DNA of 64,000 nucleotides from Acidobacteriota bacterium (lineage in GTDB: Bacteria > Acidobacteriota > Thermoanaerobaculia > Multivoradales > J023). The position numbers were made by a program, and so were the translations under genes. A model generated the notes under the pieces. That model searched no databases. It had not been told where the DNA came from and saw only the letters and a list, made by a program, of their open reading frames with translations. The stretch covers positions 8,798 through 72,797 of the forward strand of contig JAJCXO010000162.1 in assembly GCA_029263395.1 (NCBI GenBank). The letters run 5' to 3'. Positions 9,067 through 63,324 of this stretch are shown here, in pieces. Each line of letters starts with the position of its first letter. Position 1 is the stretch's first letter.

Positions 9067-9255
9067 ATCCAAGCCACAGGGAACGTTCTCAGGGTTCGAT
9101 GCGGTGGGAACACCGACATGCATTCGCGGTGCCCCCGACACGCTCGAGGGCACAGGACGGACCGGCCAGAGGCTCCTGCTCGAGTTGCGAACACGAACTC
9201 GAGACGGCTGCTCCTATCACCAGGATTGCACTCATCAGTGCGAGTCGAAGACGTC

Positions 9256-10938
9256 TCATTTTTTAGCCTCCGAGGCCAGCACTCGTCCACCACGGCCGAT
9301 CCGAGTTCGGCGCTCGATGGCAAAGTTCTCGAGCCGGATTGCCGGGCGCTCTTCTGGTGACAACGACAAGATGTACGCCACCAGCCCCCAACGATCTTTC
9401 TCCTCCGGCAGCGCGCCATCAAAGGCTGGCATCGGCGTGCCGTTGAGACCGGTCACAAAAGTCCGATAAATATCTTCCGGTTCATGGCCATTGCGGAAAA
9501 CCCATTTGTTGGTCAGATCCGTCGAGGCAATGAAGTCCCCCCAGCTATCCTCCAACTCCGCGGCAGCCGGCCCGTCACCTTCTCCACTGGCCCCATGGCA
9601 GCGGTAACACTGTGCTTCGTTGTACACCATCTTGCCGTGATCAGCGAGCTGCATGAACTCTGCTGGTGGTTCTGGAATACTGATCGTTTCCGGTTGGTAG
9701 CCACTGCGCTTGGCTTCGAGGAAGTCGTCTGACAAAGCGATCAAATAACTCGACACATCGCTGACTTGCTGCGTATTGAGAAACTGTCCCCAGGCCGGCA
9801 TAGTGGTCCCCGGGACCCCCTCGCGCACCACACGTTCAATGTCTTCAACCAGTGGGAATTCTCCACTGATCGTCGAACGGAATTTGTAGACCCCTTCGGT
9901 GAAGTCACGTGGTTTGACGTCGAAGCCCGCTGCCAAGAAACCGTCGCCATCTCCACGAATGCCATGGCACACTGCACATTGCTGGAGATAAATCTGCTGC
10001 CCTCGCTGCATGGCAATCGTTTCCGGCAAGTCGTCTGGAACCTGCACTGCCGGCGGATTGGGATCATATTTCTCGAGATTCGCCTGCACGGCTCCTGGCT
10101 CGACGTAGGAAATAGCTTGACCTGGCGTCGCAGGTGGATCCTGCTTCGCCCAGTTCCCTTCCGACGCGAAACCATGACCGAATAGGTCATACATCTTGAA
10201 GAAGTCCGCCACCCGACAATCGGTCAGCACTTCCCGCAACTCGTGGTAATAACGTCGGAAGGAATATGTGAACGAAACGCCCTGACCACCGAGCAGATGG
10301 ATCACTCCATCCACCGGATCGACCACCGCTTCCTGATGGAAAAGGTAACGATAATACGGGCTCGTCGAGCCGCCGATGTGTTGGAGGAACTCGACCCAAG
10401 GCACCGGTGACGCAGGATCTATTTCAACCAAACGATCTTTGACGTTGACGCCATAAACGCCGCCATACTTTTCGAAAAAATCGGGGAACATCGTATCCGT
10501 CCAACGATGTTCTCCAATCACATGACCAATCGTGAAGCCAAAGCTTGCCAGGGTGTTGCGCTCCCAATGGGAGCCCGGCGCCCAATAAAAAATCACGCCA
10601 CCTTCCGGCCCATCCCAATCTGTTCCGCCATATTGCTCCACTTGATGTTCGGCAATTTTGTTGTTGAGCGCCCAGAACACAAAATCGATCCAACGCGGAT
10701 CACCGGGCACCAGGGTGAGGTCGTGATCGGTGAGCGCCGAGTCCGGGTTATAGGAGGTCCGCACATCGGAACACGCCTCGCCCCACTCGCTCGACGTCCA
10801 GGCCTGAGGACTGAGGTGATCCTTGTTCGAAGTGCCGCCCTCCTCGGGCGCGTTCGCATAAGCGAAATACACGCACGACAGCCCGCAAACCACGAGCAGC
10901 GGACACAGAACGGACAGAGCGAGAATACGACGGCGCAT
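9256..10938 (-). CDS. Secreted di-haem c-type cytochrome with an ~290-aa N-terminal domain of unknown function
   Basis: Signal peptide. Two CxxCH motifs (CAVCHG, CYRCHG) in the C-terminal half, each followed by a Met-containing segment. The N-terminal domain is unassigned. Confidence 0.7.
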   Translation of the reverse strand: MRRRILALSVLCPLLVVCGLSCVYFAYANAPEEGGTSNKDHLSPQAWTSSEWGEACSDVRTSYNPDSALTDHDLTLVPGDPRWIDFVFWALNNKIAEHQVEQYGGTDWDGPEGGVIFYWAPGSHWERNTLASFGFTIGHVIGEHRWTDTMFPDFFEKYGGVYGVNVKDRLVEIDPASPVPWVEFLQHIGGSTSPYYRYLFHQEAVVDPVDGVIHLLGGQGVSFTYSFRRYYHELREVLTDCRVADFFKMYDLFGHGFASEGNWAKQDPPATPGQAISYVEPGAVQANLEKYDPNPPAVQVPDDLPETIAMQRGQQIYLQQCAVCHGIRGDGDGFLAAGFDVKPRDFTEGVYKFRSTISGEFPLVEDIERVVREGVPGTTMPAWGQFLNTQQVSDVSSYLIALSDDFLEAKRSGYQPETISIPEPPAEFMQLADHGKMVYNEAQCYRCHGASGEGDGPAAAELEDSWGDFIASTDLTNKWVFRNGHEPEDIYRTFVTGLNGTPMPAFDGALPEEKDRWGLVAYILSLSPEERPAIRLENFAIERRTRIGRGGRVLASEAKK

Positions 10939-11111
10939 AGCGAAGCCTCCTTCGGTGAAATCGGATAGATGACTCTTTTATCCAAAATAGAGGACGCAAT
11001 ACTGGATGTCAAGGTCTTCTTTTGCTAGTGTCTCGTTTGTTAGAGTCGAGCCATCGTGCTCGGAGCCAGCCTTCGAGTTCCCTAGTCATCCTCTGGTTCT
11101 GAGGCGTTGAC

Positions 11112-11564
11112 GTGTTCTCTCAAACCGCAGAATATGCCTTACGAGCCGTCGTCTGGCTAGCTGATCAAGACGATGCCAAGCCTCTCGGGGTACAGCCCAT
11201 CGCTGCCGGAACGCAAGTCCCAGCGAGTTACCTCTCCAAGGTTTTGCAAGGGCTTTCAAGGGCTGGCCTGGTCGCCTCCCGCCGTGGGGTCGGTGGCGGC
11301 TACTCGCTGACGCGAGAGCCGACCGACATCACCGTCTTAGATGTGATCAACGCCGTCGACCCGATCCAACGCATTCACGGCTGCCCGCTCGGCCTCGAGA
11401 GCCACCAGCATCAACTCTGCGCTATGCACGCACGGCTCGACGAAGCCGCCAGGCTAGTTGAAGAGTCGCTCCGCAACTCGACTATCGCGGAATTGCTGAA
11501 CACCAGCACCAGGCCTCAGCCGATGAAAGAGACGGCGTCGATCCGTTCCCTGCCGGTTGTCTGA
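11112..11564 (+). CDS. Rrf2-family transcriptional regulator (IscR/NsrR-like)
   Basis: N-terminal Rrf2 HTH (AEYALRAVVWLA...YLSKVLQGLSRAGLVASRRGVGGGYSL). C-terminal Cys/His residues (HGCPLG...HQLCAMH) could ligate a cluster. Transcribed divergently from the di-haem cytochrome gene. Confidence 0.8.
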   Translation: MFSQTAEYALRAVVWLADQDDAKPLGVQPIAAGTQVPASYLSKVLQGLSRAGLVASRRGVGGGYSLTREPTDITVLDVINAVDPIQRIHGCPLGLESHQHQLCAMHARLDEAARLVEESLRNSTIAELLNTSTRPQPMKETASIRSLPVV

Positions 11565-11637
11565 AGACCGTGCCTGACGGTTCGCTCCGGGCACAACGAA
11601 CCGGGTCAATTCCGGGGACCGAGTAAACTTAGGGACC

Positions 11638-12579
11638 ATGCGAATCCTCCTAACGATCGGTTGCTTGCTACTGGCGATGCCTGCCTTGGCGCAGGAGCCC
11701 CTCCAGATCACTCTGCTCGGCACCGGCAACCCAAGGCCTTCGATGGAGCGTTTCGGGCCTTCGATCCTGGTCGAAGCCGGCGACACCCACATCCTCATCG
11801 ACGTCGGCCGCGGGGCGTTGCAGCGGATTTTCCAGATCGGTGCGGCACCAGGCATCCGCGACATCGACTTGGTGTTGCTCACCCACCTGCACTCGGATCA
11901 CGTGGTTGGTCTTCCCGACTTCTGGCTCACCGGCTGGGTGTTCGGCCGCGACCGACCGTTGCCGGTCATCGGTCCGCCAGGTACCGAATCGATGTGCCAT
12001 CACCTCGACCAGGCCTTCGCCTTCGACAAGAAGGTTCGCGGTCGAGATAGTCGATACGAGGCCGAGGGTATCGCGCTCAAGGCCCGAAACATCCAACCCG
12101 GCGTAGTCTACGACGCCGACGGCGTCAAAATTACCGCCTTCGAAGTTGATCACGGTGACGGTATCGCGCCGGCCTACGGCTACCGCGTCGACAACGGGGA
12201 CTACTCCGCTGCTTTCTCCGGCGACATGAAGTACGACGAACGCATCGTCGAGCATGCCAAGGGTGTCGACGTGTTGGTGATGGAAGTGATCAGTGCCGAA
12301 GTCGAATTGGCAAAGGCGGCGGTCAAAAGCCAGGAAGCGATCGCCAAAGTGATCTCCCATCACATCAGTGAAGAGCAAGCCGGCAGCCTCTTTACGCGCA
12401 TCAAACCGCGCCTCGCGGTTTACTCCCACATTGTGCCGTCACCCGCCACCGCCAAAGATCTCATTCCCCCAACCCGCCGCACCTATGACGGCCCGCTCGC
12501 CGTCGGTTATGACTTGATGACCGTTGTCATCGGCAAAACCGTCGAGGTGTATCCGCGGCGGGTGATCAACGAGCCTTAG
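11638..12579 (+). CDS. Secreted MBL-fold metallo-hydrolase
   Basis: Signal peptide. HxHxDH motif (LLTHLHSDHVVG). It begins 'ITLLGTGNP' like RNase Z/ElaC-type beta-lactamase-fold enzymes. Confidence 0.8.
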   Translation: MRILLTIGCLLLAMPALAQEPLQITLLGTGNPRPSMERFGPSILVEAGDTHILIDVGRGALQRIFQIGAAPGIRDIDLVLLTHLHSDHVVGLPDFWLTGWVFGRDRPLPVIGPPGTESMCHHLDQAFAFDKKVRGRDSRYEAEGIALKARNIQPGVVYDADGVKITAFEVDHGDGIAPAYGYRVDNGDYSAAFSGDMKYDERIVEHAKGVDVLVMEVISAEVELAKAAVKSQEAIAKVISHHISEEQAGSLFTRIKPRLAVYSHIVPSPATAKDLIPPTRRTYDGPLAVGYDLMTVVIGKTVEVYPRRVINEP

Positions 12580-12654
12580 CCTGACATCCGCTCGGGGTCA
12601 GCCTGAGCGCGGGGAGCCGAGGCTCCCCTTGGGTCCGCAAGACGCTGGGTCAAC

Positions 12655-14652
12655 TCAGGCCAGAATGTCTTGGTCAGCGTCTTCGATGAAGTCGAGCGCG
12701 ATGTCGATGAAGAGATCACGAAAGAACGGAATGCCCGTGATAGCCGCAATCTCCAGACTCGTTTTGGCGGCCTTCAAGTCTTTCACCGCCGCGGGATGCA
12801 ACCCGCCACCGTCCAAGACCTCGATCGCATCTTCGACTTCCGCAAACGCCAACCCAAGCAGCGACTGGGCGGTAGCGAAGTCGTTGACATCCTTCACAAA
12901 GGTTGCGGTTTCGTTGGCGCTGCGGTTGTTCTCGAGTGCATTGATGACCCGCAAGAAGGCACCAACCGCCACCACCTGAGTGGCCTCGAGATCGATGCCA
13001 ACGCCTCCTGAGTCGACCGAAACCAAGAACTGACCAATCGGTGAGTTGTTGAACGCGTCGCTGTTGTAGAACGCGACCGCACCCTCGACGGTCTCGACCG
13101 AGTTGTTGTGAAAGAACGGTCCGGTGTCCGCAGCCTCAACGATCACTGGCGTATTGAACGAGCCGTCACCGAAGCCGCCGTTGGGGTTCGGCACGCGACC
13201 AAACCCACCGTCGGGTGGATTGTTGGCGGCATCGACGAGGTCCGCCGGTTGGTCCGGTAGATCCTCGACGCCGGTGTTGAAGTTACGGTTCTCGAAGCCA
13301 CCGGTGAGAGCAAAGTTGGCTCCACCGTTGAAATGGCAGGTATTACATTTGCCGGCTGCAACGGTGCCACCCACACTATCGGCTGCCACGAAGATTTCCT
13401 GCCCGCGGGCCGCAACCTCGCTCGATAACGCCAACGTCGACAGGTCCAACTCGTCTTGACGACCGAGGAAAAGCTGGAAAGCCTCCATAGCGTCGAGTTC
13501 GGCATCGGTGGGCAGACGGAAGTCGACATTCGGCGTTCGCCCCAGGGTCTGCGGGAAATGCTGCGTAACGGCACCGATAGCGAACTCGCGCAGAGTACCG
13601 CTGCCGGGTGAGCCATCACCCGACCAACCCGTCCGCTCGTCGGGAGGTGTGGTGGTGCCGTCAGCGCCCGGTGTGAGGGCATTACCCATCGCCAAAGTGT
13701 GGGGCACCCCGCGCATCGTGAAGCTGTTGGCCAGATCCCCGAAACCGTCGGTATTCTCCAAGATAAGGCCAACTTTTCGCATCAACTCGGGCTTTTCGAA
13801 ATTCGACATCAACGCCGGCACGAACTCGGCCACGAACAGCGGATCATCGTCCGGTAAGGTTGCGATGAATTCCGGATCGATCGTGAAGTTGTGTTCCGCC
13901 GGATGGCAAGTGCCGCAGGTACGGCCGTTCCCCGCGAAGGTCTCATTGAAAAAGAGATCGGCGCCTTGCTCGATCAGTGGATCGAAGGACGGGACCAGAT
14001 CACTGGCAAAAACCGGTTGGGTACCGAGGGCGCCGAGCGCTGCCAAGACCGTCCCCGGTTCTTGGCCCTCGAACGGTACGCGTCCGCTTCGCACCCGGGT
14101 GTACATGCGCTGCATGAGACTCGAAGAGCCGACTAGGACCCGCGACTCTACAGGAGCTTGACCTGCTCGGCTGACGACGATCAAGTCGACCTCGAACATT
14201 CCGAAGGCGTTGCCAACATCTGCGCTCAACACCGCACGATCACCCTCGGACACCAGCGTTCCGACGTGCAAGTAGTTGTCTTCCGTTTCCGGTAAGACCG
14301 AGCTGTCATTCAAATTGTCGACCAACCAGACTTCCGAGATCTCGGAATCGGCCAGCCCCTCAACTTCTACTTGGACCTTGCCGTCGATCAGATCGAGCCT
14401 GGCTTTGCCCTTGGCATACGTGTGTTCCACCGACAGCCCCTTGGACCAGCCGAGGCTCATGACGACATTTTTGTCGCCGCCATTCGCAACGTGACGCTCC
14501 GACCAACTGGCGAAGGCATACTCCAAACTGTCGGCTTTGGTCATCGAAATGTAGGGCGAGACAGCCTCGTCCGATGGCGTGAAGTAGTTGGACGCTGGGT
14601 AGACCAGAGTCAGGCTCAGTAGGGCCGCGATGAGAAGGTAACGCTTCTTCAT
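12655..14652 (-). CDS. Di-haem cytochrome c peroxidase (CCP/MauG family) with an N-terminal extension
   Basis: Signal peptide. Two CxxCH motifs in CCP-like contexts (LFFNETFAGNGRTCGTCHP and GKCNTCHFNGG). Also the conserved 'GPFFHNNSVETVEGAVAFY' segment. The ~230-aa N-terminal extra domain is unassigned. Confidence 0.75.
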   Translation of the reverse strand: MKKRYLLIAALLSLTLVYPASNYFTPSDEAVSPYISMTKADSLEYAFASWSERHVANGGDKNVVMSLGWSKGLSVEHTYAKGKARLDLIDGKVQVEVEGLADSEISEVWLVDNLNDSSVLPETEDNYLHVGTLVSEGDRAVLSADVGNAFGMFEVDLIVVSRAGQAPVESRVLVGSSSLMQRMYTRVRSGRVPFEGQEPGTVLAALGALGTQPVFASDLVPSFDPLIEQGADLFFNETFAGNGRTCGTCHPAEHNFTIDPEFIATLPDDDPLFVAEFVPALMSNFEKPELMRKVGLILENTDGFGDLANSFTMRGVPHTLAMGNALTPGADGTTTPPDERTGWSGDGSPGSGTLREFAIGAVTQHFPQTLGRTPNVDFRLPTDAELDAMEAFQLFLGRQDELDLSTLALSSEVAARGQEIFVAADSVGGTVAAGKCNTCHFNGGANFALTGGFENRNFNTGVEDLPDQPADLVDAANNPPDGGFGRVPNPNGGFGDGSFNTPVIVEAADTGPFFHNNSVETVEGAVAFYNSDAFNNSPIGQFLVSVDSGGVGIDLEATQVVAVGAFLRVINALENNRSANETATFVKDVNDFATAQSLLGLAFAEVEDAIEVLDGGGLHPAAVKDLKAAKTSLEIAAITGIPFFRDLFIDIALDFIEDADQDILA

Positions 14653-54688: not shown

Positions 54689-55507
54689 TCAGCGAGTGCC
54701 TGATCCGGCACTTGACTCCTCAGGAGCGGTCTTGTCGGCCGCATCATCTTGATCCGTTGGCTCGTCGTCAGCCGCTGCACCGGATCCCGAACGGCGCTCC
54801 GACGGACGGACCCGCTCGGCGGCATCGTGCAGGCCGGCGATGTGTAACAAGCCTGCAACGGTCCGAGTGATGTAGAGGTAAGTCTGATCGTACGTCTCGA
54901 TCGCTTCGTTCTTCTCCAAACGGGTTGCTTCGGCCTGTTTGCGCGCCCCGGCGTGATCGGTGAGCACCCGGTCGAGCGTCTTGGCATCAGACGCCAGGCG
55001 CTCGGAAACCCGGGAGTGATCCACATCGAACCCTTCGACTGCCGGCAGCGCCACCTTCGGTTTGCCGAGGAAGTCCACCGTTTCCCGCACCTGCTTGAGT
55101 AGACCTGCCGGGTCACGCAGGGTGGGTCCCGCCACTCCGACCACCGTAAACCCACGAACACCTCCGTAGAGATTCTCCAAAGCGTGGCGGACTTGAACGA
55201 AGTTCCCGGCGAGATCGCTTGCAAGCTCGTCCCGCTGTCCAGCGAGTTCAACAACCCTGGCCAGCTGTCCCTGGTGGCCGGTGTTGACCCCCAACATGTG
55301 CTGGAACGCGCCCGCGAGCTCAACGTTGAGATCGGTGAAGACCCGTTGGTAATCGGCGGCGGGCGGCCCCTCTGGCACCGACGGATACTTGGCGCCGAGG
55401 ATACCGGCGGCTTCGTCACCGGTAGCCCTGATAGCTGCGGTGACCACATCGAACGACCTTCTCTTGGCGGCGAGTGTTCGATCCTGCGTTTTGACTGGTT
55501 TTTTCAT
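54689..55507 (-). CDS. Hypothetical protein (272 aa), no recognisable domain
   Basis: The start is chosen at 'MKKPVKTQ' (ATG 55507). It lies downstream, on the same strand, of the MTase/nuclease pair after a ~430-bp gap. Confidence 0.4.
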   Translation of the reverse strand: MKKPVKTQDRTLAAKRRSFDVVTAAIRATGDEAAGILGAKYPSVPEGPPAADYQRVFTDLNVELAGAFQHMLGVNTGHQGQLARVVELAGQRDELASDLAGNFVQVRHALENLYGGVRGFTVVGVAGPTLRDPAGLLKQVRETVDFLGKPKVALPAVEGFDVDHSRVSERLASDAKTLDRVLTDHAGARKQAEATRLEKNEAIETYDQTYLYITRTVAGLLHIAGLHDAAERVRPSERRSGSGAAADDEPTDQDDAADKTAPEESSAGSGTR

Positions 55508-55936
55508 GAGTCTGACTCCATGTGCTTTTTCGAGGGTACCGGACACCACCCACACGGCGGCGCTTTCGTCTCCCTCTACCCCTTCATGCACCTGCTGGAG
55601 GGATTTCGGTCATGGACGCCAGAATTTATTCTTACAGACCTGCAAGCAGTGCCCTCAACACCTCCGAGGACACCGATCCGATCTCCCATCGGTGCCGACG
55701 TGCGATCGACTCTCACTCACTAACTAGATCCCGTCCCGTTTTGCCATTTTCGGCTCGGTGAGGGAGATCTTGTGGAGCGAGCAAGCAGCGAGCATGTTTG
55801 AGCTTCGCACCTGTTCCCATCTCGTATCCGATAGCACCAAAAGGGCTTAGGCTTCTCGTAACAGATCCGGCGAGTTCTGGAGCGGCGGCGCAGCCCACAA
55901 GGCCGACCGAGCTCTCGGCATGTTGTTGGATGGGAT

Positions 55937-56686
55937 CTAACTACAGTCGTGCCAGAGATGATAGATACGAATATCAGTGGCGGCCCCTTTGTCAGCCACC
56001 CACGGAAAACCACGTTGATGTCGGCTGACATAGAGAGCTTCGGCTTTGCCACGCGCTTCCGCACCCCGGACCTCTAGTTGACGCGGAGGCTCGGTGGTTT
56101 TCAACTGTTCCAGTCGTTCAGCCTTGTTCATCTCAGGAATCAGATGCTGGGTTATGGTGCGGTCCCGTGTATAACCCAACATCAAGCTCTCTTGCATCGC
56201 CCATGCGTAGTCGCCGTCTACAAAACGAAGTAGCCCAAGTCCGCAATAGTGTTTGCCAACGGCGTGAGTCTTATCGATAGGCTTACATTCGACGAAGAGC
56301 GCATCGTGCACCGACAAAACTCGCGGGGTTTCTTCCTCGTCGCTGCAAAGCTTGAAGCAAAGATCTGGCGATTTCTTCAGCTTCTTGAGGGTGTAGTTTG
56401 CAACCTCGCCACCTCGGATCACTGTCTCGTACGTCCGGCAATTGAAACCACGAACGCTTCCCTTCTGACGCAGATCGTTCTCGACGATACCTCTCAATGC
56501 CGTCGTGATCTCGTCCTCCTTTTTGGTCGCCAACGAGCCTTGCTCGAGCAATAGTTCGAACGCACGCAGCAGCACACGGCGAATCAGGAGGATCACGGGC
56601 AGCTCAATGTGAGGATGCGGTAGATCATAGTCCTCGGGCGAAACGCCAAGGGCGAACAGCCCATCTACAGCCTGCTGACGGCTCAT
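55937..56686 (-). CDS. PD-(D/E)xK nuclease-superfamily protein (restriction-endonuclease-like)
   Basis: Motif 'SPDL…(x19)…HDALFVECKP' (D…ExK). The ATG at 56686 overlaps the MTase stop (ATGA), which indicates translational coupling. Confidence 0.55.
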   Translation of the reverse strand: MSRQQAVDGLFALGVSPEDYDLPHPHIELPVILLIRRVLLRAFELLLEQGSLATKKEDEITTALRGIVENDLRQKGSVRGFNCRTYETVIRGGEVANYTLKKLKKSPDLCFKLCSDEEETPRVLSVHDALFVECKPIDKTHAVGKHYCGLGLLRFVDGDYAWAMQESLMLGYTRDRTITQHLIPEMNKAERLEQLKTTEPPRQLEVRGAEARGKAEALYVSRHQRGFPWVADKGAATDIRIYHLWHDCS

Positions 56687-59600
56687 GTTTGCTGAGTCAG
56701 CCCCAACGCGCCAAAGTGGTGCTTGATAATGTGCTGCCCGCACGAGCGCGCACGGGTAATAGTCCACCAACGCCGCTGGTTGAGCAGACCCAAAAGCAAA
56801 CCACGCCTGCCGTGCGCCTTGACGATAATCCGACTGGCAGAGCGCTTGTTTGCTTCTTGCATGGCCCTGCGCAGGAGGGACGCATTGACCGGCACTGGCT
56901 CTGCCGCTCGCGAAATGGCGAGAAAGAACCACGGCTGCCTCCAAGTGTCCGGCTGGTCTGACGGCTCCTCGATCAAGACGGTTTCACCACAGACGTCGAA
57001 GTAAGGCTCGAGGGCCTCTTGCAACTCAGTCCGGAATGGATCCCGATGCTCCCGCATCGTGCGCTCGAGCGCTGCACGGCCTGCCCGCCGATACGAAGCA
57101 GAAGCGAACAGAGTATCTCGGGCAACCTGCACTGCGTCCTCGTCGAGGCCGTAGAGATTGAACAGGAACGTGTCGATCTCATTCCATGGCTTCTCTACAT
57201 TGTGTTGGAGCTGGTGTGCGAGATTCTGCAAGGTGTCTTTCGTCGAAACAGAAAGCTCTGTTACGTCTGGAAACGCCAAGGCATCGAATTCGCTTTTGTT
57301 GAACGTCTGTCGATCGAAGCCGGCACGACGACTCGTCATCAAGCAAAAGTAAGAAAAGAGTGTCGAATGGGGAAGTAGATAAATCAGCGCCGCTAGAGTT
57401 CCTTGGTCTCTGAGCTCAGCACAAGAATAGCCATAGAAGCTCTGAGAAAAAGCGAGCGCCTGGTTAGAAATAAAGGCTCGCGGCTTCTCTGGATCTTCGC
57501 CGGGAGATTGAGGAATAATGACCAGAGGCGGTTGATAGAGATACTTTGTCTTCGGCCAGTATGCGGTGGCGCATCCGGCTTCGTTCATATTGTGCGTACT
57601 GTGGGTTTCTAAGAAGGTCTTGAGACTCTCATAGTGAATCGAGAAGCCTAATTGGGGCGACTCGAAGTTAGGGAGGCTACCAAGGAATTCAGCTGGTTTT
57701 TGCCTCAGCGCTGGCGAGAGATTGTAGCCCTGACCAGTCTTGTCCAACTTTGGATTCCACGCCTTCCATAAGACTCCCAGCTTCTCAGGAAAAGCTTTCT
57801 GAATCTGCTCTACGATCTGCACATCGCGCCAGGTGCCAAGGGAAAGTGCTTTCAACACCCACGGCTGCTCTTCCAAGCGTTCGATGGAGATTGGCCGGGT
57901 CGCTTCATAGTCGACGCGAAAACGCGCATGGTGATGCTGATCCGGTTCATAAAGTGGTGACGCATAGTAAAATCGATGGCCTGGTGGTGTAATGCAATTG
58001 CGTGCGAACAACAAGCAAAAAGGCATATCAACAGCTTCCCACACCGGTGTCTTGCGCAGATCAGCGCCGTTGATCAGGCCGGTAATCGAGAGAGCGCGGA
58101 GTATCGCACGCCAAGCTTCGAAACCTTTCCCTTCAGTTCGGCCGAAGATACGAGCGGGCAGAGCGAAGGCTATAAGCCCATTCTCTTTTTTAGCCCAGAC
58201 GGTCGCCCGCCAGATGAAAGGGAGGTCGGGATTCTTGTCGGGATTTTCGTACACTTCCGCCAGCTCTGGTAAACCACGCTCACGGAGCGCACGGCGTCCG
58301 ATCTCGGTGAACTCCTCATTCAGCGTATCCGAATTGGTTTTGACCCTCTCAGTAGGCTTCTCTTCGGTGCTTTGTGGCTTTCTTTCCCGCAGCCGTGTCC
58401 ACGGCGGGTTGCCGATTACGATGTCAAAGCATCCGTTGAATTCTTGCGGAACGCTCGACCCTAAGCTACCGAGGGTGAAGCGAGATGTGCGACGCGACAC
58501 TTCTTGAGCATCAGCATCGCCAAGCTCCTCTCTGAAGCAGTAGAGCACTTCGTTGCGGAGATCTCGGGGAAACTTGAGTGTCTTGGGTGGTCTCGGCGTG
58601 CCATTGACCTCGATCGCCGTGATGTAGAGCGCTAGCGCGGCGAGACGAAGGGCTGATTCGCTGATCTCGAATCCACGGATCTGGTTGTAGAGGATCCTCT
58701 GGATGACTCGGGTATTAGGTCGCTTGCCATCCGCCTGCCAACGCTCGCTGACGAGTCGACGAAAAGCCAACACGAGAAAGATGCCGGCGCCACATGTCGG
58801 GTCGAGGACCTTGGCCTCGACTGGGTTCTTGACAGCAGAAAAGGTCTGATCCACCATCAACCGTGCGATGGTGCGAGGGGTGTAGTGAATACTGGTGGCT
58901 TGCGCGGAGTGGGGATCAGCACGGTGGCTGAAGCTCTCGTACACCTGGCTGAGCACGCCAACCGGGATGTGTGCAAAGTCGAGGTCCCCCCAGTCCAACG
59001 TCAGCTGCATGGCCTCGCCGGTAGCTTTCCATCCATTCAAGATGGCGTGGAGATGGAGAAAAAACTTGCGCCCGGCACGCTGCTCTGTCGCCTGGTAATA
59101 CCGCTGGTAGGCCTCCTGGCGTGCGACACGATCCCTGGCGGGGATGGATTCGTCGATCAGCTGGAGAAAATCGCCGTTGAAGGTCTCGTCGAGCCAGGCA
59201 GAGGTCTGCGCGGCCTTTTCGGCGTTGGCAAAGGTGTCCTTGAGACCGTCCGCGGCGGGGCAGATGTCCTGCAGCTCCTTATTGAGCACAATCTTGCGAT
59301 CGACAAGAAAACGGAAGAATAGGGCACGGCCAGCCATCGACAAGACGTCGAGCGGTGGCACAAGTGGCTCTTCGCCTGTGCCGACATACTGGTCGATCGT
59401 CTGCTTCAGCAATCCAAAAATTTTCTTGAAGACATAATCCGAGCCCTCGAGTCGTTTGTTCTCCTCGAGAGTGCCGTGAACCAGGCCTTGAAAGAAGAGG
59501 GGCGCTGTTGTCTCATCTTCCTTGATGGTCAACGCCGGATGAAGCGCCGCGTCTTGACCAAAGCCGATAGGGTGGAGTTCTAGCTGACCGGGCCGCGCCA

Positions 59601-59901
59601 CGCCGAGCCAAGCTGGATCACTGCGATTGGCGAGCATCTGCTGAAGCTGGCTGATCCTTGCAGTCGTGGCACTTGCATCACCACAGGCATCTACGAGGTA
59701 AAGCAGCGCCGTACCCTGATGCTCCGCAACGGCATTAACCGGTGCCGAAGCAGAACCCCTTGTCGGCAATAGATCCAGATATTCAATCTGGGCGGGGCTG
59801 GCCAATGGCTCGTCGAGCCGAATAAGGTCGGGGCAACCGTAGGCCCGCATGCGCTCGGTGAGAGGCCGCCCGCTCGCCGCATCTGGTTGCTTGGTTGTCA
59901 T
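56683..59901 (-). CDS. Large (1072-aa) gamma-class N6-adenine DNA methyltransferase, Type IIG/PglX-like
   Basis: Motif X 'SIHYTPRTIARLMVD'. Motif I 'DPTCGAGIFLV'. Motif IV 'NPPW', in gamma order. There is a ~390-aa N-terminal region and a ~500-aa C-terminal (TRD-like) region. No nuclease motif was found within this polypeptide. Confidence 0.85.
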   Translation of the reverse strand: MTTKQPDAASGRPLTERMRAYGCPDLIRLDEPLASPAQIEYLDLLPTRGSASAPVNAVAEHQGTALLYLVDACGDASATTARISQLQQMLANRSDPAWLGVARPGQLELHPIGFGQDAALHPALTIKEDETTAPLFFQGLVHGTLEENKRLEGSDYVFKKIFGLLKQTIDQYVGTGEEPLVPPLDVLSMAGRALFFRFLVDRKIVLNKELQDICPAADGLKDTFANAEKAAQTSAWLDETFNGDFLQLIDESIPARDRVARQEAYQRYYQATEQRAGRKFFLHLHAILNGWKATGEAMQLTLDWGDLDFAHIPVGVLSQVYESFSHRADPHSAQATSIHYTPRTIARLMVDQTFSAVKNPVEAKVLDPTCGAGIFLVLAFRRLVSERWQADGKRPNTRVIQRILYNQIRGFEISESALRLAALALYITAIEVNGTPRPPKTLKFPRDLRNEVLYCFREELGDADAQEVSRRTSRFTLGSLGSSVPQEFNGCFDIVIGNPPWTRLRERKPQSTEEKPTERVKTNSDTLNEEFTEIGRRALRERGLPELAEVYENPDKNPDLPFIWRATVWAKKENGLIAFALPARIFGRTEGKGFEAWRAILRALSITGLINGADLRKTPVWEAVDMPFCLLFARNCITPPGHRFYYASPLYEPDQHHHARFRVDYEATRPISIERLEEQPWVLKALSLGTWRDVQIVEQIQKAFPEKLGVLWKAWNPKLDKTGQGYNLSPALRQKPAEFLGSLPNFESPQLGFSIHYESLKTFLETHSTHNMNEAGCATAYWPKTKYLYQPPLVIIPQSPGEDPEKPRAFISNQALAFSQSFYGYSCAELRDQGTLAALIYLLPHSTLFSYFCLMTSRRAGFDRQTFNKSEFDALAFPDVTELSVSTKDTLQNLAHQLQHNVEKPWNEIDTFLFNLYGLDEDAVQVARDTLFASASYRRAGRAALERTMREHRDPFRTELQEALEPYFDVCGETVLIEEPSDQPDTWRQPWFFLAISRAAEPVPVNASLLRRAMQEANKRSASRIIVKAHGRRGLLLGLLNQRRWWTITRARSCGQHIIKHHFGALGLTQQT

Positions 59902-59985
59902 CGTCGATCCTGGGTTATCCGGTCGTCCGATTGTAGCCGAGCTAGGCCGAATCTGAATCTCAGCGCCCCATTACGGTCCGGCAGT

Positions 59986-60180
59986 CAGCGGCAGCGACAG
60001 TGGCCAGCGGCAGCGACAGTGGCCAGCGGCAGCGACAGTGGCCAGCGGCAGCGACAGTGGCCAGCGGTAGCGACAGTGGCCAGCGGTAGCGACAGTGGCC
60101 AGCGGCAGCGACAGTGGCCAGCGGCAGCGACAGTGGCCAGCGGCAGCGACAGTGGCCAGCGGCAGCGACAGTGGCCAGCG
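59986..60180. repeat. Perfect 19-bp tandem repeat x10 (CAGCGGCAGCGACAGTGGC; two copies carry a C-to-T variant)
   Basis: Read directly. It lies in the divergent intergenic region between the MTase start (59901) and the ECF-like sigma start (60370). It is flanked by CATTACGG / CATTACCG. Confidence 0.9.
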
Positions 60181-60369
60181 CCTGACGCCTCATTACCGCT
60201 TCAGATTAAGTCAGGATCGCAGTAAAGTCAAGCCAGTGATGGCTTTGTGAGATGTTCTGCCGGTTACCAAACTAGACCGGGCGACACAACCGCATGCGAC
60301 GTCAACTTCGGGCAGAGAGGCTTCCTGGGGTGCAGCCCCACGATAGAGGTGTACTAGGCTAGGTGCGTC

Positions 60370-61056
60370 ATGAGCCGCACACCCCAGCGTCAAGCACCCC
60401 AACGTCGGGCAAACCCTGCCAGAGCCCACAGTGACGAAGACATCGAGGATGCGATCCGTGCGCTGACGCCGGGGCATTTCAAGAAGCTGCGGGCCGCCGC
60501 CTACGCGCTGGTGCGCGGCCTCGACCTCGAAACCGCCGGGCGGGGACACGAAGACCTGTACTCCGAGGCTTTGGCACGCACCCTCAGTGGCAGTCGTAGC
60601 TGGCGTCAGGGAGTGGATTTTATGTACCACCTCATCCAAGCGATGCGCAGTATCGCTTGGACCTGGCGCGAGTTCGAGGATCGGCGTGAACGGGCTGGCT
60701 TGGTCGGCGCGCTGGGTGCCGGCACCCCTGAGGGCGGCGAGGACGAGGTAATGGATCCGGTTTCACCCGAGCCCAACATCGAGACCGCGTACCTCACCTC
60801 TCGCGAATTGGCCAGGTTTCATCGCCGGTTCAGTGACGATCGGCCGGCGAGCATTGTGATGCACGGATGGGCGCAGGGGGAGTCGATGCAAGAGATGGCG
60901 CAGCGCTTCGGCATCGCCCTCCAGGACCTACAGTGGGCGGCGCGCCGGATTCGGCGATTTTCGCAACGCGCCGCGCCCGAAGACAGCTGGCAAACAATTC
61001 GACAAGCAGTTCGACAGGCAGGTTCGCGGGATCGAGGAGACACCCATGGCCAGTGA
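60370..61056 (+). CDS. Divergent ECF-like sigma-70 family protein
   Basis: Region-2-like 'GHEDLYSEALARTL…FMYHLIQAMRSIAWTWRE'. Region-4-like 'IVMHGWAQGESMQEMAQRFGIALQDLQWAARRIRRF'. Conservation is weak. Confidence 0.45.
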   Translation: MSRTPQRQAPQRRANPARAHSDEDIEDAIRALTPGHFKKLRAAAYALVRGLDLETAGRGHEDLYSEALARTLSGSRSWRQGVDFMYHLIQAMRSIAWTWREFEDRRERAGLVGALGAGTPEGGEDEVMDPVSPEPNIETAYLTSRELARFHRRFSDDRPASIVMHGWAQGESMQEMAQRFGIALQDLQWAARRIRRFSQRAAPEDSWQTIRQAVRQAGSRDRGDTHGQ

Positions 61057-61474
61057 CCGCAACAACCAGCGACACCAGCTCGAGAGCTTGCTCGACGGCA
61101 TCGTCGAGTCCATCTTGGACGCCCCCGAGGAAGAGATCGACGACGACTTGAAGGCTCTGGGCGAAGACCCGGAGAAGGCCGCGATGGAGTCCCGCCGGCT
61201 CGCCCTCGAAGCCGTTGCGCAGCACCGTACTCAGCGCCGCGAACAAGCTCGTCAGCAATACGAAGACGAACAACAGACCTTCGAAGGCCAGGCATACGAT
61301 CTACCGGAGACACCCCGAGCACGCCTTGCCCTGCTCGTCGCCGCTGTCCATGGCAGGCCACACCTGAGCGGTATGCTCACCGTTGAACATCGCGATCTGC
61401 GCGGACTGCCAGACGAAGACGTGGTCGGCTACCTGCGCCAACTCGCCGAACTCGGGGTGCTCGACGAGCTGTGA
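61046..61474 (+). CDS. Small acidic helical protein (candidate anti-sigma or substrate of the downstream protease)
   Basis: 142 aa, highly acidic, no TM segment. It overlaps the upstream sigma-like gene by 11 nt. Confidence 0.4.
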   Translation: MASDRNNQRHQLESLLDGIVESILDAPEEEIDDDLKALGEDPEKAAMESRRLALEAVAQHRTQRREQARQQYEDEQQTFEGQAYDLPETPRARLALLVAAVHGRPHLSGMLTVEHRDLRGLPDEDVVGYLRQLAELGVLDEL

Positions 61475-61487
61475 GGCCCAACGAGCT

Positions 61488-62609
61488 GTGACCCAACGCT
61501 GGCCTTTCGCGCACTCGGCAGAACGACGCTGGCACGACCCCGCCGCACTGCTGCGCCACCTCGGGATCACCTGCCCTGAGGACATCGATGTCGAGGCGAT
61601 CGCACGTTACTGCAACGCCCGCGTTTCGTATCAATCGCTGAACGGCTGTGCCGGGCGCATCGTCGGTCACCGCGGCCGTGCGGTGATCGTCGTCGACCGC
61701 AACACCCACCCATTTCGCCGACGTTTCACCATTGCCCACGAGCTAGGCCACTGGATGTTCGACCGCGCCGACGTCGCCCACGTCTACACGGAGGACGCTT
61801 GGGGCCAACCTTCCGAACAGCCACCAGCCGCCGACAACGGTCCACATGAGGTTTGGTACGAGGACCGGCCAGAGCAGCGAGCAAACCGCTGGGCCGCCGA
61901 GCTGTTGATGCCCGAAGGATGGTTCGCTCCGGATGCGGCTGGCCGCGAAATCAGCTTCGATACCGTCCGCGACCTGGCCCAGCACTACCGAACCAGTCTC
62001 ACCGCCACCGCTCTGCGTCTCCTCGAACTGGGTTCGACGCCTGCGATGCTGATTCGCAGCTGCCGAGACCAGCCCAATCGGTGGTTCAGGCGCGGCGCTG
62101 GCGTCCCACGGAGTCTCTGGCCACATCCTGAACCCTGGCCCGGCACCGTCGCCTTTGACCTGCTGCACGGCCACTCTCTCCATACCGGTCTCACCGCCGT
62201 AGCCGCCGATGGCTGGATCGACCGCCGAGACGCCTGGTGGTTTCGGGTCAACGAAGACTCGCTGCCCGTGGGAGGCGGCGATGTCCTCACCTTGATCAGC
62301 TGGCCTGACGACGCCCAACTGCGCGCCACCTTCACCCTCGCCGGCACCTGGCTACCGTGGAAGCCGGGAAAAAACGCCCGCGCTCGCTTGCTGAAGTGCC
62401 TGTGTGACAAATGGTCCTACCGTCGCCGACGGGGTCAGCCAGGGGAGACCGTCCTCGAAACCGATCAGCCTACACCCCAGCACCTCACAGTATCGTCAGC
62501 CGAGGCGCTCGACGTCGAAGGCTTCAGACGGCTGGTGGACGAGGTCGCCACACACAAGGGTGTACCGCCGGGAATTGTCCTACGTTCGATGTTGCGGCGG
62601 CCGAAATAA
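61488..62609 (+). CDS. ImmA/IrrE-family (COG2856) HExxH zinc metallopeptidase with ~230-aa C-terminal extension
   Basis: 'RRRFTIAHELGHWMFD' HEXXH context. 'ANRWAAELLMPEGWF' is a downstream Glu. IrrE-like overall architecture. The start is set at the GTG at 61488. The ORF track ATG at 61383 would overlap the upstream gene by 90 nt. Confidence 0.7.
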   Translation: MTQRWPFAHSAERRWHDPAALLRHLGITCPEDIDVEAIARYCNARVSYQSLNGCAGRIVGHRGRAVIVVDRNTHPFRRRFTIAHELGHWMFDRADVAHVYTEDAWGQPSEQPPAADNGPHEVWYEDRPEQRANRWAAELLMPEGWFAPDAAGREISFDTVRDLAQHYRTSLTATALRLLELGSTPAMLIRSCRDQPNRWFRRGAGVPRSLWPHPEPWPGTVAFDLLHGHSLHTGLTAVAADGWIDRRDAWWFRVNEDSLPVGGGDVLTLISWPDDAQLRATFTLAGTWLPWKPGKNARARLLKCLCDKWSYRRRRGQPGETVLETDQPTPQHLTVSSAEALDVEGFRRLVDEVATHKGVPPGIVLRSMLRRPK

Positions 62610-62619
62610 TCCATCACTC

Positions 62620-63060
62620 CGGGCCCAAAAGCCCAATCGACCCTCGATCCGGGTCCCAAGCACCGCCCGGGAGGTCAATCGGCCCTCGATTGGGGTCCCA
62701 TGAGCCACAACAGGCCCAAACGACCATCGATTCGTCCATTCGGCGATCACGCAACCGCCAAACGAGGGTCGATCGGAGGACACAGACCAGAGCCATCGCA
62801 AAAACGAGGGTCGATTAGCCTCTGCGACGACCGTCGAGACTCCAATCGAGCGACGATTGGGGTTCCAACTGTTGCTCGGGACCTCAATCGAGGCTCGACC
62901 CGCCTGCTGGCAGCTCCAGATGGTTCAAACGACCATCGTTTGAGCACTTTCCCAGATAGCGACAGTGACAACGAGGGTCGATCGGGCTGCCGTGCGACGG
63001 CGCAAACTCCAATCGACCCTCGTTCGACTCTAGGGCAGTCTCTCGAGCAGCGATCGACCC
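62620..63060. repeat. Array of ~11 degenerate ~41.5-bp tandem repeats, each centred on a 13-14-bp palindromic core (AATCGACCCTCGAT and variants, both orientations)
   Basis: Cores fall at roughly 62628, 62669, 62710, 62753, 62795, 62836, 62877, 62918, 62960, 63001 and 63043. ORFs exist in several frames on both strands, so the region is probably non-coding. Confidence 0.7.
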
Positions 63061-63324
63061 TCGAATTCAGACACTAAGGGCCAGGCGGTGGCTCGACGAG
63101 CGGCTGGCCGTCATCAAGACCGGCTCTAACTTGGGTTTCGACTTGCATGATGGTCTCCTTTGTTTGAATGTCTGCAGATCGACGGACACGATACCCTGGC
63201 ACCGAGACCTTGCCACGATTGACCAAGGCGGAGCGCCTCGCAGGACAAAGTCCCGCTTGATGGGGACACTCCTAAAGGCGTCAATCCGTAAGGGATTCGA
63301 TCACAGCCTTTGAGTTGTTGCTAC

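Follow-up and report, generated by a model that had tools for sequence, protein, structure and literature searches.

On balance, we favour the reading that a three-gene cassette in an Acidobacteriota genome is a sigma-factor version of the CapH/CapP switch, in which a CapP-type peptidase activated by single-stranded DNA (ssDNA) would cleave an anti-sigma protein and free a sigma factor. The cassette (60370–62609, plus strand) encodes a sigma-like protein, a small acidic protein that we call P2 and a CapP homologue. All coordinates are positions in the window, the whole 64,000-nt stretch of DNA that was analysed, and labels between L002 and L021 denote related loci. An earlier note had drawn attention to positions 59902–62609, and the features it described there are all present in the sequence. 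In the CapH/CapP system, an ssDNA-activated peptidase cleaves an XRE-HTH repressor, and the adjacent immune operon is derepressed (Lau et al. 2022; Calloji et al. 2026 preprint). The earlier note knew of no described example of a sigma-linked variant; the arrangement is in fact mentioned in one sentence of Lau et al. (2022), according to which capH and capP occur in 24 CBASS systems ‘alongside a predicted sigma70-family sigma factor’. We found no study in the literature of the mechanism of sigma-linked capH/capP systems.

The first gene (60370–61056, plus strand) encodes a 228-aa protein that, judged by profile matches, is a remote, divergent ECF-like sigma of the two-domain type (sigma2 and sigma4). 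When family profiles were compared with the PDB, sigma factors alone scored. The profiles matched region 2 of SigH/SigE at E = 0.0035 and 1.2e-3, and the matches cover region 2 and region 4 in the correct order, including a sigma4 domain, the HTH that reads the −35 element. Foldseek aligned 176–213 columns to full-length SigH and RpoE, and the most conserved blocks are a region 2.1/2.2-like ‘EDLxSEA’ and a region 4.2-like ‘AARRIRR’. Several plasmid homologues carry the NCBI annotation ‘sigma-70 family’. A Pfam search with the window protein gave no match, and sub-threshold Sigma70_r2 matches turned up in 6 of 12 close and 11 of 82 wider relatives (best E = 3e-6). The scores fall below every curated sigma cut-off, which leaves binding of this protein to RNA polymerase presumptive and counts against our preferred reading. 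Processing of a pro-sigma by CapP was considered and set aside, the N-terminus aligning with an ordinary region 1.2/2.1 and bearing no extra pro-sequence. Ten nucleotides upstream of the ATG lies a box, GGTGTACTAGGCT (60348–60360, plus strand), that is kept at an equal distance from the ATG in L002, L006 and L007; it is probably the −10 region of a near-leaderless promoter for the sigma operon.

The second gene (61046–61474, plus strand) encodes P2, a 142-aa, acidic, all-helical protein (pI 4.6, net charge −15) with a basic central helix, which is our candidate for both the anti-sigma and the CapP substrate, that is, the equivalent of CapH. A sigma gene followed by an overlapping anti-sigma gene is the classic layout of ECF operons. 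P2 lies directly downstream of the sigma-like gene and is co-translated with it, the two genes overlapping by 11 nt in the window and by 4–14 nt in each locus that has annotations for both. P2 matches no solved anti-sigma and has neither the ASD helical-bundle fold nor the HxxxCxxC zinc motif. No HTH was detected in it, including the XRE-type HTH at the N-terminus. The PADLOC capH model did not pick up the window P2 at E ≤ 1; weak matches were found in 8 of 18 members of the P2 family (best E = 1.4e-4), and the C. sphaeroides homologue scored 4.9e-5 over profile positions 17–99 of 103. On these matches P2 resembles a CapH-equivalent substrate, and the earlier suggestion that the HTH partner had been replaced is probably too simple. 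Arg116 of P2 is near-invariant and lies about 27 residues from the C-terminus; the residue before it is H, F, L or A, and the helix that comes after it, LRQLAELGVLD, is conserved more strongly than any other. In CapH, a protein of 107 residues, the cut falls at F82|R83, within a C-terminal two-helix region and about 25 residues from the end, and the last helix is the one that docks on CapP (Lau et al. 2022; Calloji et al. 2026 preprint), which suggests, by position only, that R116 parallels the CapH cleavage site.

The third gene (61488–62609, plus strand) encodes a 373-aa IrrE/ImmA-family M78 metallopeptidase with an HTH/GAF part and a clade-specific tail of about 100 aa. Its GTG start at 61488 suits the homologues better than the mechanical TTG at 61383, which would give a 408-aa ORF. 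Matches to PADLOC capP (E = 5.6e-50, profile positions 11–241 of 242, reaching residue 307 of the 408-aa ORF), to Pfam Peptidase_M78 (PF06114; 7.8e-15, above cut-off) and to the PDB profile of CapP 7t5t (3.1e-5) identify this HExxH protein as a bona fide CapP/IrrE homologue. The motifs HELGH and AAELLMPE form an HExxH zinc site with its downstream Glu ligand, and the full-length CapP profile match takes in the C-terminal HTH and GAF-like sensor part. What had been described as a sensor-like C-terminal extension of about 230 aa is therefore mostly the ordinary HTH and GAF of CapP/IrrE, but its last 100 aa or so are indeed extra. No Cys lies between HExxH and the Glu ligand in the window clade, whereas the CapP homologues of L008 and L010 carry ‘FACT’ in that loop; a cysteine-switch loop is found in many CapPs and is not universal in the family. 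Since the window clade lacks the cysteine switch and has the additional tail, its activation may differ. Activation by ssDNA is published for CapP and for IrrE (shown for PprI).

The P2 and CapP genes are 13 nt apart in the window, so that of three genes first described as translationally coupled, the sigma-like gene and P2 overlap but P2 and the peptidase gene do not. A 17-bp imperfect duplication at 61464–61498 (TRF: period 17, 2.2 copies) spans the end of P2 and the start of CapP, and the spacing arises because this duplication copied the GTGA stop/start junction through which the two genes overlap by 1–14 nt in relatives.

The trio occurs in about 10 independent Acidobacteriota loci and in 8 loci on alphaproteobacterial plasmids. 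P2 follows the sigma-like gene in every trio locus examined (10 Acidobacteriota, 8 plasmid), and CapP comes next in 8 of the 10 and in all 8, respectively. The linkage of the sigma-like/acidic pair to peptidase homologues, which the earlier note had left to be checked, is thus kept across two phyla and beside defence operons, and from this synteny the trio is, in our assessment, a conserved, portable cassette. On the plasmids it diverges from defence operons, among them CBASS and ubiquitin-like (Bub-type) ones, whose cargo includes a CBASS cyclase with a SAVED-HNH effector, multiubiquitin/E2/ThiF genes and a Beta_protein/sce7726 pair. The CBASS locus on plasmid pDE of Cereibacter sphaeroides 2.4.1 carries such a sigma-linked capH/capP-type cassette. 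Counting against our preferred reading, the Acidobacteriota loci L005 and L012 have the sigma-like gene, P2 and a further gene, X (see below), without CapP, and L003 has the trio without X. Scans of contigs returned two loci for the sigma alignment against genome contigs and one for the P2 alignment against metagenome contigs; this reflects either overly narrow patterns or a family of low abundance in those collections.

The earlier note set the trio beside an RM-like operon with a large methyltransferase, a layout that it likened to that of CapH/CapP and BrxR modules next to defence systems. In our analysis, the probable regulated target in the window is not that operon, which lacks the conserved promoter motif described below, but X (54689–55507, minus strand), a 272-aa protein of unknown fold whose gene is divergent from the trio in relatives. 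In L002 the gene that diverges directly from the sigma-like gene encodes a protein 73% identical to X, and homologues hold that divergent position in L005, L006, L007, L008, L010 and L012. No match to X was found among Pfam, PADLOC, NCBIfam, PHROG or PDB profiles. In both phyla the sigma-like gene is found together with a bipartite motif, TGWCCR-N17-19-GCATRR. The motif matches 15 times in 285 kb, where 2.45 matches would be expected, and 13 of the 15 matches adjoin a sigma-like gene. In the window it reads TGACCGAAAT-N13-GGTGCATGA (55584–55612, minus strand) and lies upstream of X, and it is found at the corresponding place in seven Acidobacteriota loci. The −35 part varies among clades; the GCAT of the −10 part is kept in all loci but L021 (GCCTAA). 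We infer that the motif is the cognate promoter of the sigma-like protein, with promoter activity. An autoregulated ECF sigma is expected to have its motif facing its own operon too. In the plasmid loci the motif points both ways, including toward the sigma operon; in the Acidobacteriota no copy was detected upstream of that operon, which counts against the preferred reading, as does the occurrence of X alone, without the motif. The two TGTCCG (−35) boxes of the plasmid loci are arranged as an inverted repeat and might just as well constitute an operator.

The methyltransferase (56683–59901, minus strand; 1072 aa) is an N6-adenine DNA methyltransferase of type IIG/PglX-like character (Pfam Eco57I 7.5e-11, N6_Mtase 1.8e-10 and MmeI_Mtase 2e-9; PADLOC REase_MTase_IIG 6.4e-19). 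Membership of BREX or MADS was rejected because its scores are far below the cut-offs (41 bits against 400 for BREX_2 PglX, 26 against 720 for MAD2) and because no other BREX or MADS genes lie in the neighbourhood. It is coupled by an ATGA overlap to a 249-aa gene (55937–56686, minus strand) whose start is most likely the ATG at 56686, overlapping the methyltransferase stop codon; this gene has no family match and is a putative nuclease by its PD-(D/E)xK-like D..ECK motif alone. The methyltransferase stands between X and the sigma-like gene solely in this genome, at a site where inserted segments range from 22 bp to 4.7 kb, and comparison with the related loci indicates that the pair is a 4.7-kb insertion into an ancestral X/sigma divergent promoter. 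The trio does share a promoter region with the methyltransferase operon in the window, as the earlier note had stated, but this arrangement is not conserved among relatives. The sigma-type motif was not found upstream of the methyltransferase in the window or in L002. The inserted pair may have its own housekeeping-type promoter, for which a sigma70-like candidate (TTCAGA-16-TACAAT; 59930–59957, minus strand) lies 29 nt upstream of the methyltransferase ATG, as a consensus match only, the count of such matches in the region being not above chance. The 19-bp repeat reported earlier as ten copies was recovered as 10.3 copies of CAGCGGCAGCGACAGTGGC at 59986–60180, inside the inserted segment, where 0.09 matches are expected by chance; no such array was seen when the X/sigma intergenic sequences of seven related Acidobacteriota loci were read by eye.

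In the mechanism that we favour, P2, made in step with the sigma via the overlapping genes, would keep it inactive as an anti-sigma in unstressed cells. ssDNA arising from DNA damage or phage attack would activate CapP, which would cut P2 in its conserved C-terminal region, at a predicted site just before Arg116. The freed sigma would then direct RNA polymerase to the TGWCCR-N17-19-GCATRR promoter, a dedicated element driving the adjacent operon, here X; on the alphaproteobacterial plasmids the promoter would drive a CBASS, Bub-type or other defence operon together with the cassette itself. The wider proposition, that soluble ECF-like sigmas activated by a same-operon, ssDNA-sensing IrrE/CapP protease are widespread, and that the anti-sigma cut by the protease is of a new type, either descended from the CapH substrate module or convergent with it, is more tentative, and taken as a whole we hold its chances to be slightly under even.

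Under a two-layer control, which we think unlikely, P2 would be a CapH-like DNA-binding repressor seated on the divergent promoter and removed by CapP, as in canonical CapH/CapP, and the sigma would serve only as the dedicated initiation factor for that promoter, not sequestered by P2. The weak matches of P2 relatives to the capH model over most of its length would fit this arrangement, as would the basic central helix of P2 and the naming of the gene beside capP as ‘capH’ in the 24 sigma-linked systems of Lau et al.; the plasmid inverted repeat could be its operator. The sigma-like protein might also be no working sigma at all, acting as a region-4 HTH repressor or activator, or as a PhyR-like sigma mimic; the cassette would then be a switch made of repressor, partner and protease, with no redirection of RNA polymerase. 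This seems improbable to us given matches to both sigma regions in the right order, Foldseek alignments to full-length SigH and RpoE, the nature of the two most conserved blocks, and a linked DNA motif whose two parts are spaced as in a promoter.

ImmA/IrrE peptidases control ICEBs1 and prophages, and TnSmu1 has also been listed in this connection. By analogy, the cassette could be a mobile-element immunity or induction switch in the style of ImmR/ImmA, or a COG2856 toxin–antitoxin-like module, instead of a regulator of defence genes, its neighbours being hitch-hikers in a variable island. Its plasmid copies do sit among RadC, TA, transposase and conjugation-related genes, PDB 7t5t bears the name ‘CapP toxin’, weak matches to an NCBIfam spr1629 antitoxin and to PADLOC RmrA were found, and the gap between X and the sigma-like gene takes insertions. 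We nevertheless give this explanation little credence: no P2 homologue was found among 50,697 phage records, the Acidobacteriota loci are free of flanking integrase or conjugation genes, and recognised defence operons that carry the motif recur as the divergent partner on the plasmids.

Compared with CapH/CapP, the cassette likewise ends in a full-length CapP homologue as the last gene of a small operon and adjoins, usually divergently, defence operons (CBASS, Bub-type), and some relatives of P2 weakly resemble the capH model, the P2 family having a conserved Arg near the C-terminus, as CapH does. It differs in having three genes rather than two, in a P2 that is 30–40 residues longer and without a detectable HTH, in a window-clade peptidase that, unlike many CapPs, has no cysteine switch and a tail of about 100 aa, and in the addition of an ECF-like sigma with its own promoter motif, which implies positive control by sigma release and not simple derepression. 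IrrE(PprI)/DdrO of Deinococcus and ImmA/ImmR of ICEBs1 also use an M78 metallopeptidase with an HTH/GAF-like C-terminal part and cut their substrates in a C-terminal oligomerisation region, comparable to the C-terminal cut that we propose in P2; what they cleave, however, is a DNA-binding repressor of the XRE type, neither system includes a sigma factor, and IrrE/DdrO governs a genome-wide DNA-repair regulon rather than one adjacent operon.

As in sigmaE–RseA (DegS/RseP) and sigmaW–RsiW, the cassette has a sigma gene that overlaps the gene of its putative inhibitor and is co-transcribed with it, the plasmid versions of the operon would be autoregulated, and the inhibitor would be destroyed by a protease. 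Those systems use membrane anti-sigmas, site-1 and site-2 proteases and envelope signals, whereas the cassette has three soluble proteins, among them a cytoplasmic IrrE-family protease from the same operon and a P2 lacking the ASD fold and zinc motif, and its expected signal is ssDNA. CapW/BrxR and CapK with CapS are likewise small regulatory cassettes beside variable defence cargo, and RM systems are often adjacent, as noted for CapK/CapS; their proteins are unrelated (a WYL repressor; a STAS-wHTH repressor with a GHKL kinase), and CapK/CapS resemble anti-sigma and anti-anti-sigma proteins yet have no sigma factor. CapH/CapP, CapW and CapK/CapS all act by lifting repression.

If our reading is correct, anti-phage operons would be subject to positive control and feedback as well as to repression, and IrrE/ImmA proteases would for the first time be linked to the biology of sigma factors. 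Under the wider, more tentative proposition, the cassette would represent a new route of sigma activation, cytoplasmic, triggered by DNA damage and independent of membrane proteases, and no earlier ‘Cap’ regulator of immune operons would have worked by positive control or had a promoter code of its own. The motif would predict the target gene of each cassette, here X rather than the assumed RM-like genes, and X, if the target, could be a new effector or DNA-damage protein. Because the pDE CBASS locus of C. sphaeroides 2.4.1 carries the same cassette, the hypothesis is testable in a tractable model organism.

An Rfam search of 54–64 kb gave no match. A GC-rich stem-loop lies in the 5′ leader of X (55544–55563, minus strand), and the two Acidobacteriota clades and the stand-alone copies of X retain this structure although their sequences differ.

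The earlier note had described three consecutive plus-strand ORFs at 60370-62609 with a repeat and a methyltransferase gene upstream, and this layout proved correct. A 228-aa ORF (60370-61056, +), hereafter the sigma-like gene, overlaps by 11 nt a 142-aa ORF (61046-61474, +), hereafter P2, which is followed by a gene for an HExxH protein of 373 aa from its GTG start (61488-62609, +), hereafter the CapP homologue. Alignment with homologues backed the GTG at 61488, which the note had chosen, over the mechanically called TTG at 61383. The note had also taken all three genes to be translationally coupled; the first two overlap, but P2 and the peptidase gene, which overlap in relatives, lie 13 nt apart in the window because a 17-bp imperfect duplication (ACGAGCTGTGAG(G)CCCA, 61464-61498) copied the GTGA junction that holds the P2 stop and the CapP start.

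By itself, the 228-aa protein passes no curated model. A profile of 12 close relatives had SigH/SigE region 2 (0.0035) and sigma-H (0.055) as its two best PDB matches, and a profile of 82 wider relatives matched sigma-H 3mzy (2.3e-5, spanning both domains), CnrH (5.5e-4) and SigH (1.2e-3). The best Foldseek matches were full-length SigH, RpoE-NepR and sigmaE. On these profile and fold matches the protein is probably a remote ECF-type sigma factor. The wider family yielded 1,960 representatives in an exhaustive search, only 25 of which score below 1e-30, and some members carry receiver-like, TIR-TPR-like or zinc-ribbon-like fusions (examples are P0044, P0053, P0070, P0081, P0069 and P0087). Some of the fusions begin with a stretch that resembles TIR by eye and continue with TPR repeats and a tandem pair of sigma-like modules; in others the N-terminus is receiver-like, or the C-terminus bears a zinc-ribbon-like extension (CxxC...CxxxC).

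The peptidase matched the PADLOC capP model at 5.6e-50 with the whole profile covered, Pfam Peptidase_M78 at 7.8e-15 and the solved CapP structure 7t5t at 3.1e-5, matches that identify it as a homologue of CapP, the IrrE/ImmA-type peptidase of the CapH/CapP controllers of immune operons. Most of its 'sensor-like extension' is the HTH/GAF part usual in the family; extra sequence is confined to the last ~100 residues, which are common to the closest relatives only. Some CapPs have a cysteine switch; the CapPs of the window clade lack it, as their stretch from HExxH to the Glu ligand contains no cysteine. Directly after the CapP stop, a 16-nt motif, CAATCGACCCTCGATC, recurs ~11 times at window positions 62630-63066; its copies stand in either orientation, at a regular spacing of 41-42 nt or double that. 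None of the 17 related loci searched contained the motif, and the region had no Rfam match.

The order sigma-like gene, P2, CapP recurs in Acidobacteriota MAGs. P2 directly follows the sigma-like gene in 10/10 independent Acidobacteriota loci, with CapP next in eight of the ten; L005 and L012 are without CapP, and in another of these loci (L007) a 327-aa DUF4351 gene (weak match; 7370-8353) is inserted between P2 and CapP. A tblastn search of plasmids returned records in which sigma-like and CapP matches are separated by a few hundred bases, and all eight plasmid CapP loci that were opened (Fuscovulum, two in Bradyrhizobium, Cereibacter sphaeroides 2.4.1 pDE, Azospirillum, Paracoccus, Celeribacter and Sinorhizobium) had the same three genes with overlapping junctions. 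The middle plasmid protein aligned with P2 at hhalign probabilities of 97.5% and 96.8%, and P2 HMM E-values were 2e-23 to 8e-9 in plasmid loci outside the model-building set, matches by which it is recognized as a P2 homologue. The divergent neighbours on plasmids vary: a CBASS operon (cyclase, 2.6e-201, with a SAVED-HNH effector), multiubiquitin/E2/ThiF operons, a Beta_protein/sce7726 pair, and small proteins. With a conserved trio beside varied divergent cargo, the trio behaves, as judged from gene neighbourhoods, as a portable regulator of adjacent and mostly defence cargo. In two plasmid loci (L018, 6538-6816, -; L020, 3555-3833, -), the gene that comes first after the sigma-type promoter encodes a 92-aa protein with no family match; the copies are 78% identical. 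In Fuscovulum this gene is accompanied only by another small gene, and in C. sphaeroides pDE it precedes the CBASS cyclase gene.

A protein of ~275 aa, which we call X, is encoded by the immediate divergent neighbour of the sigma-like gene in seven Acidobacteriota loci. The window orthologue (54689-55507, -), 73% identical to the copy in the related locus L002, lies 4.8 kb away. Intergenic comparison showed that an X-side block and a sigma-side block are both retained across loci, separated by 22 bp in L006, 25 bp in L007, 125 bp in L002 and 4.7 kb in the window. The window spacer contains a 1072-aa N6-adenine methyltransferase gene (56683-59901, -), a nuclease-like gene with a D..ECK motif (-; likely start ATG 56686, overlapping the methyltransferase stop) and a 19-bp repeat, and its G+C content is 0.54-0.58 versus 0.60-0.64. 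Because the two conserved blocks flank this RM-like pair and the segment is lower in G+C, the pair is, on sequence comparison, an insertion into an ancestral divergent promoter. The 19-bp repeat (59986-60180) comprises 10.3 copies within the inserted segment, with only two variant units (C to T); no such array was visible by eye in the X/sigma intergenic sequences of the seven related Acidobacteriota loci compared, and it looks like a recent expansion. L002, the closest relative, has a different methyltransferase (1031 aa, 24% identical to that of the window) with a 223-aa gene downstream of CapP (8936-12699). Different methyltransferases at different sites argue that RM-like genes were acquired twice, independently, beside the cassette, and the association points to co-location of the island type more than to a regulatory link that is conserved.

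A bipartite element, TG(T/A)CC(G/A)-N17-19-GCAT(A/G/T), lies upstream of X in every Acidobacteriota locus; the window copy is TGACCGAAAT-N13-GGTGCATGA (55612-55584, -). The plasmid loci carry the same element, TGTCCG-N18-GCATAG, in two orientations, one facing the cargo and the other the sigma operon. Across 285 kb of loci, the strict pattern matched 15 times where 2.45 matches were expected (100 shuffles, maximum 7 matches), and 13 of the 15 were in the promoter region next to the sigma-like gene. The element has the geometry of an alternative-sigma promoter. Its -35 part differs from clade to clade, and the GCAT of its -10 part is kept except in locus L021 (GCCTAA). No copy precedes either methyltransferase, that of the window or that of L002, and the window methyltransferase has a candidate sigma70-like element, TTCAGA-16-TACAAT, 29 nt before its ATG. 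With the motif upstream of X and before neither methyltransferase, the likeliest target of the cassette in this genome is X.

The trio is probably a variant CapH/CapP-type controller, and the role of its middle protein can be read in two ways. P2 is acidic (pI 4.6, net charge -15) and predicted to be all-helical (pLDDT 78), and the window protein matches nothing known. P2 has a thin link to CapH: the C. sphaeroides homologue matched the PADLOC capH model at 4.9e-5, and 8/18 family members had weak matches. The window's own P2 did not match this model. Conservation in P2 is highest at the C-terminus, where a near-invariant R116, 27 residues from the end, is preceded by H, F, L or A and followed by a helix (LRQLAELGVLD). 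CapP cleaves CapH, which has 107 residues, at F82|R83 and is the docking site for the last CapH helix; DdrO is cut by IrrE within a loop of its C-terminal domain. The trio also resembles ECF sigma/anti-sigma operons in its overlapping genes, its soluble acidic partner and, in the plasmid versions, its probable autoregulation, a classic layout that supports the note's anti-sigma idea for the small acidic protein. Given this layout and the CapH-like C-terminal features, we favour P2 as a candidate for both anti-sigma factor and CapP substrate; a DNA-binding role like that of CapH is less likely. The trio of the earlier note is real, and its regulatory reading is partly supported. If true, the trio would activate its sigma factor by a new route.

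The note knew of no described example. Lau et al. recorded 24 CBASS systems with a predicted sigma70-family sigma factor beside capH/capP, a type to which the pDE locus belongs. In its 2026 papers the same laboratory names three regulator families only, CapW/BrxR, CapH+CapP and CapK+CapS, with no discussion of a sigma factor. Full-text literature searches turned up no work on a switch of the sigma/anti-sigma/IrrE type, so the arrangement is recorded but uncharacterised. What is new, as far as can be told, is its conservation across phyla, a middle protein that is not of the HTH kind, the promoter motif and gene X.

Two X paralogues without the cassette occur in GCA_024226315.1 (L015, 10001-10819; L016, 7956-8774), both ~55% identical to window X. 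These stand-alone copies adjoin PIN/antitoxin pairs, and a LexA gene lies ~1.8 kb away in L015. The X leader of the window contains a GC-rich stem-loop (55544-55563, -), which is found in the same place in L002, L005-L008, L012, L015 and L016, thus also in the stand-alone copies without a sigma-type promoter. Its structure is kept and its sequence differs between clades; an RNA element is one possible reading, a palindrome bound by a protein another.
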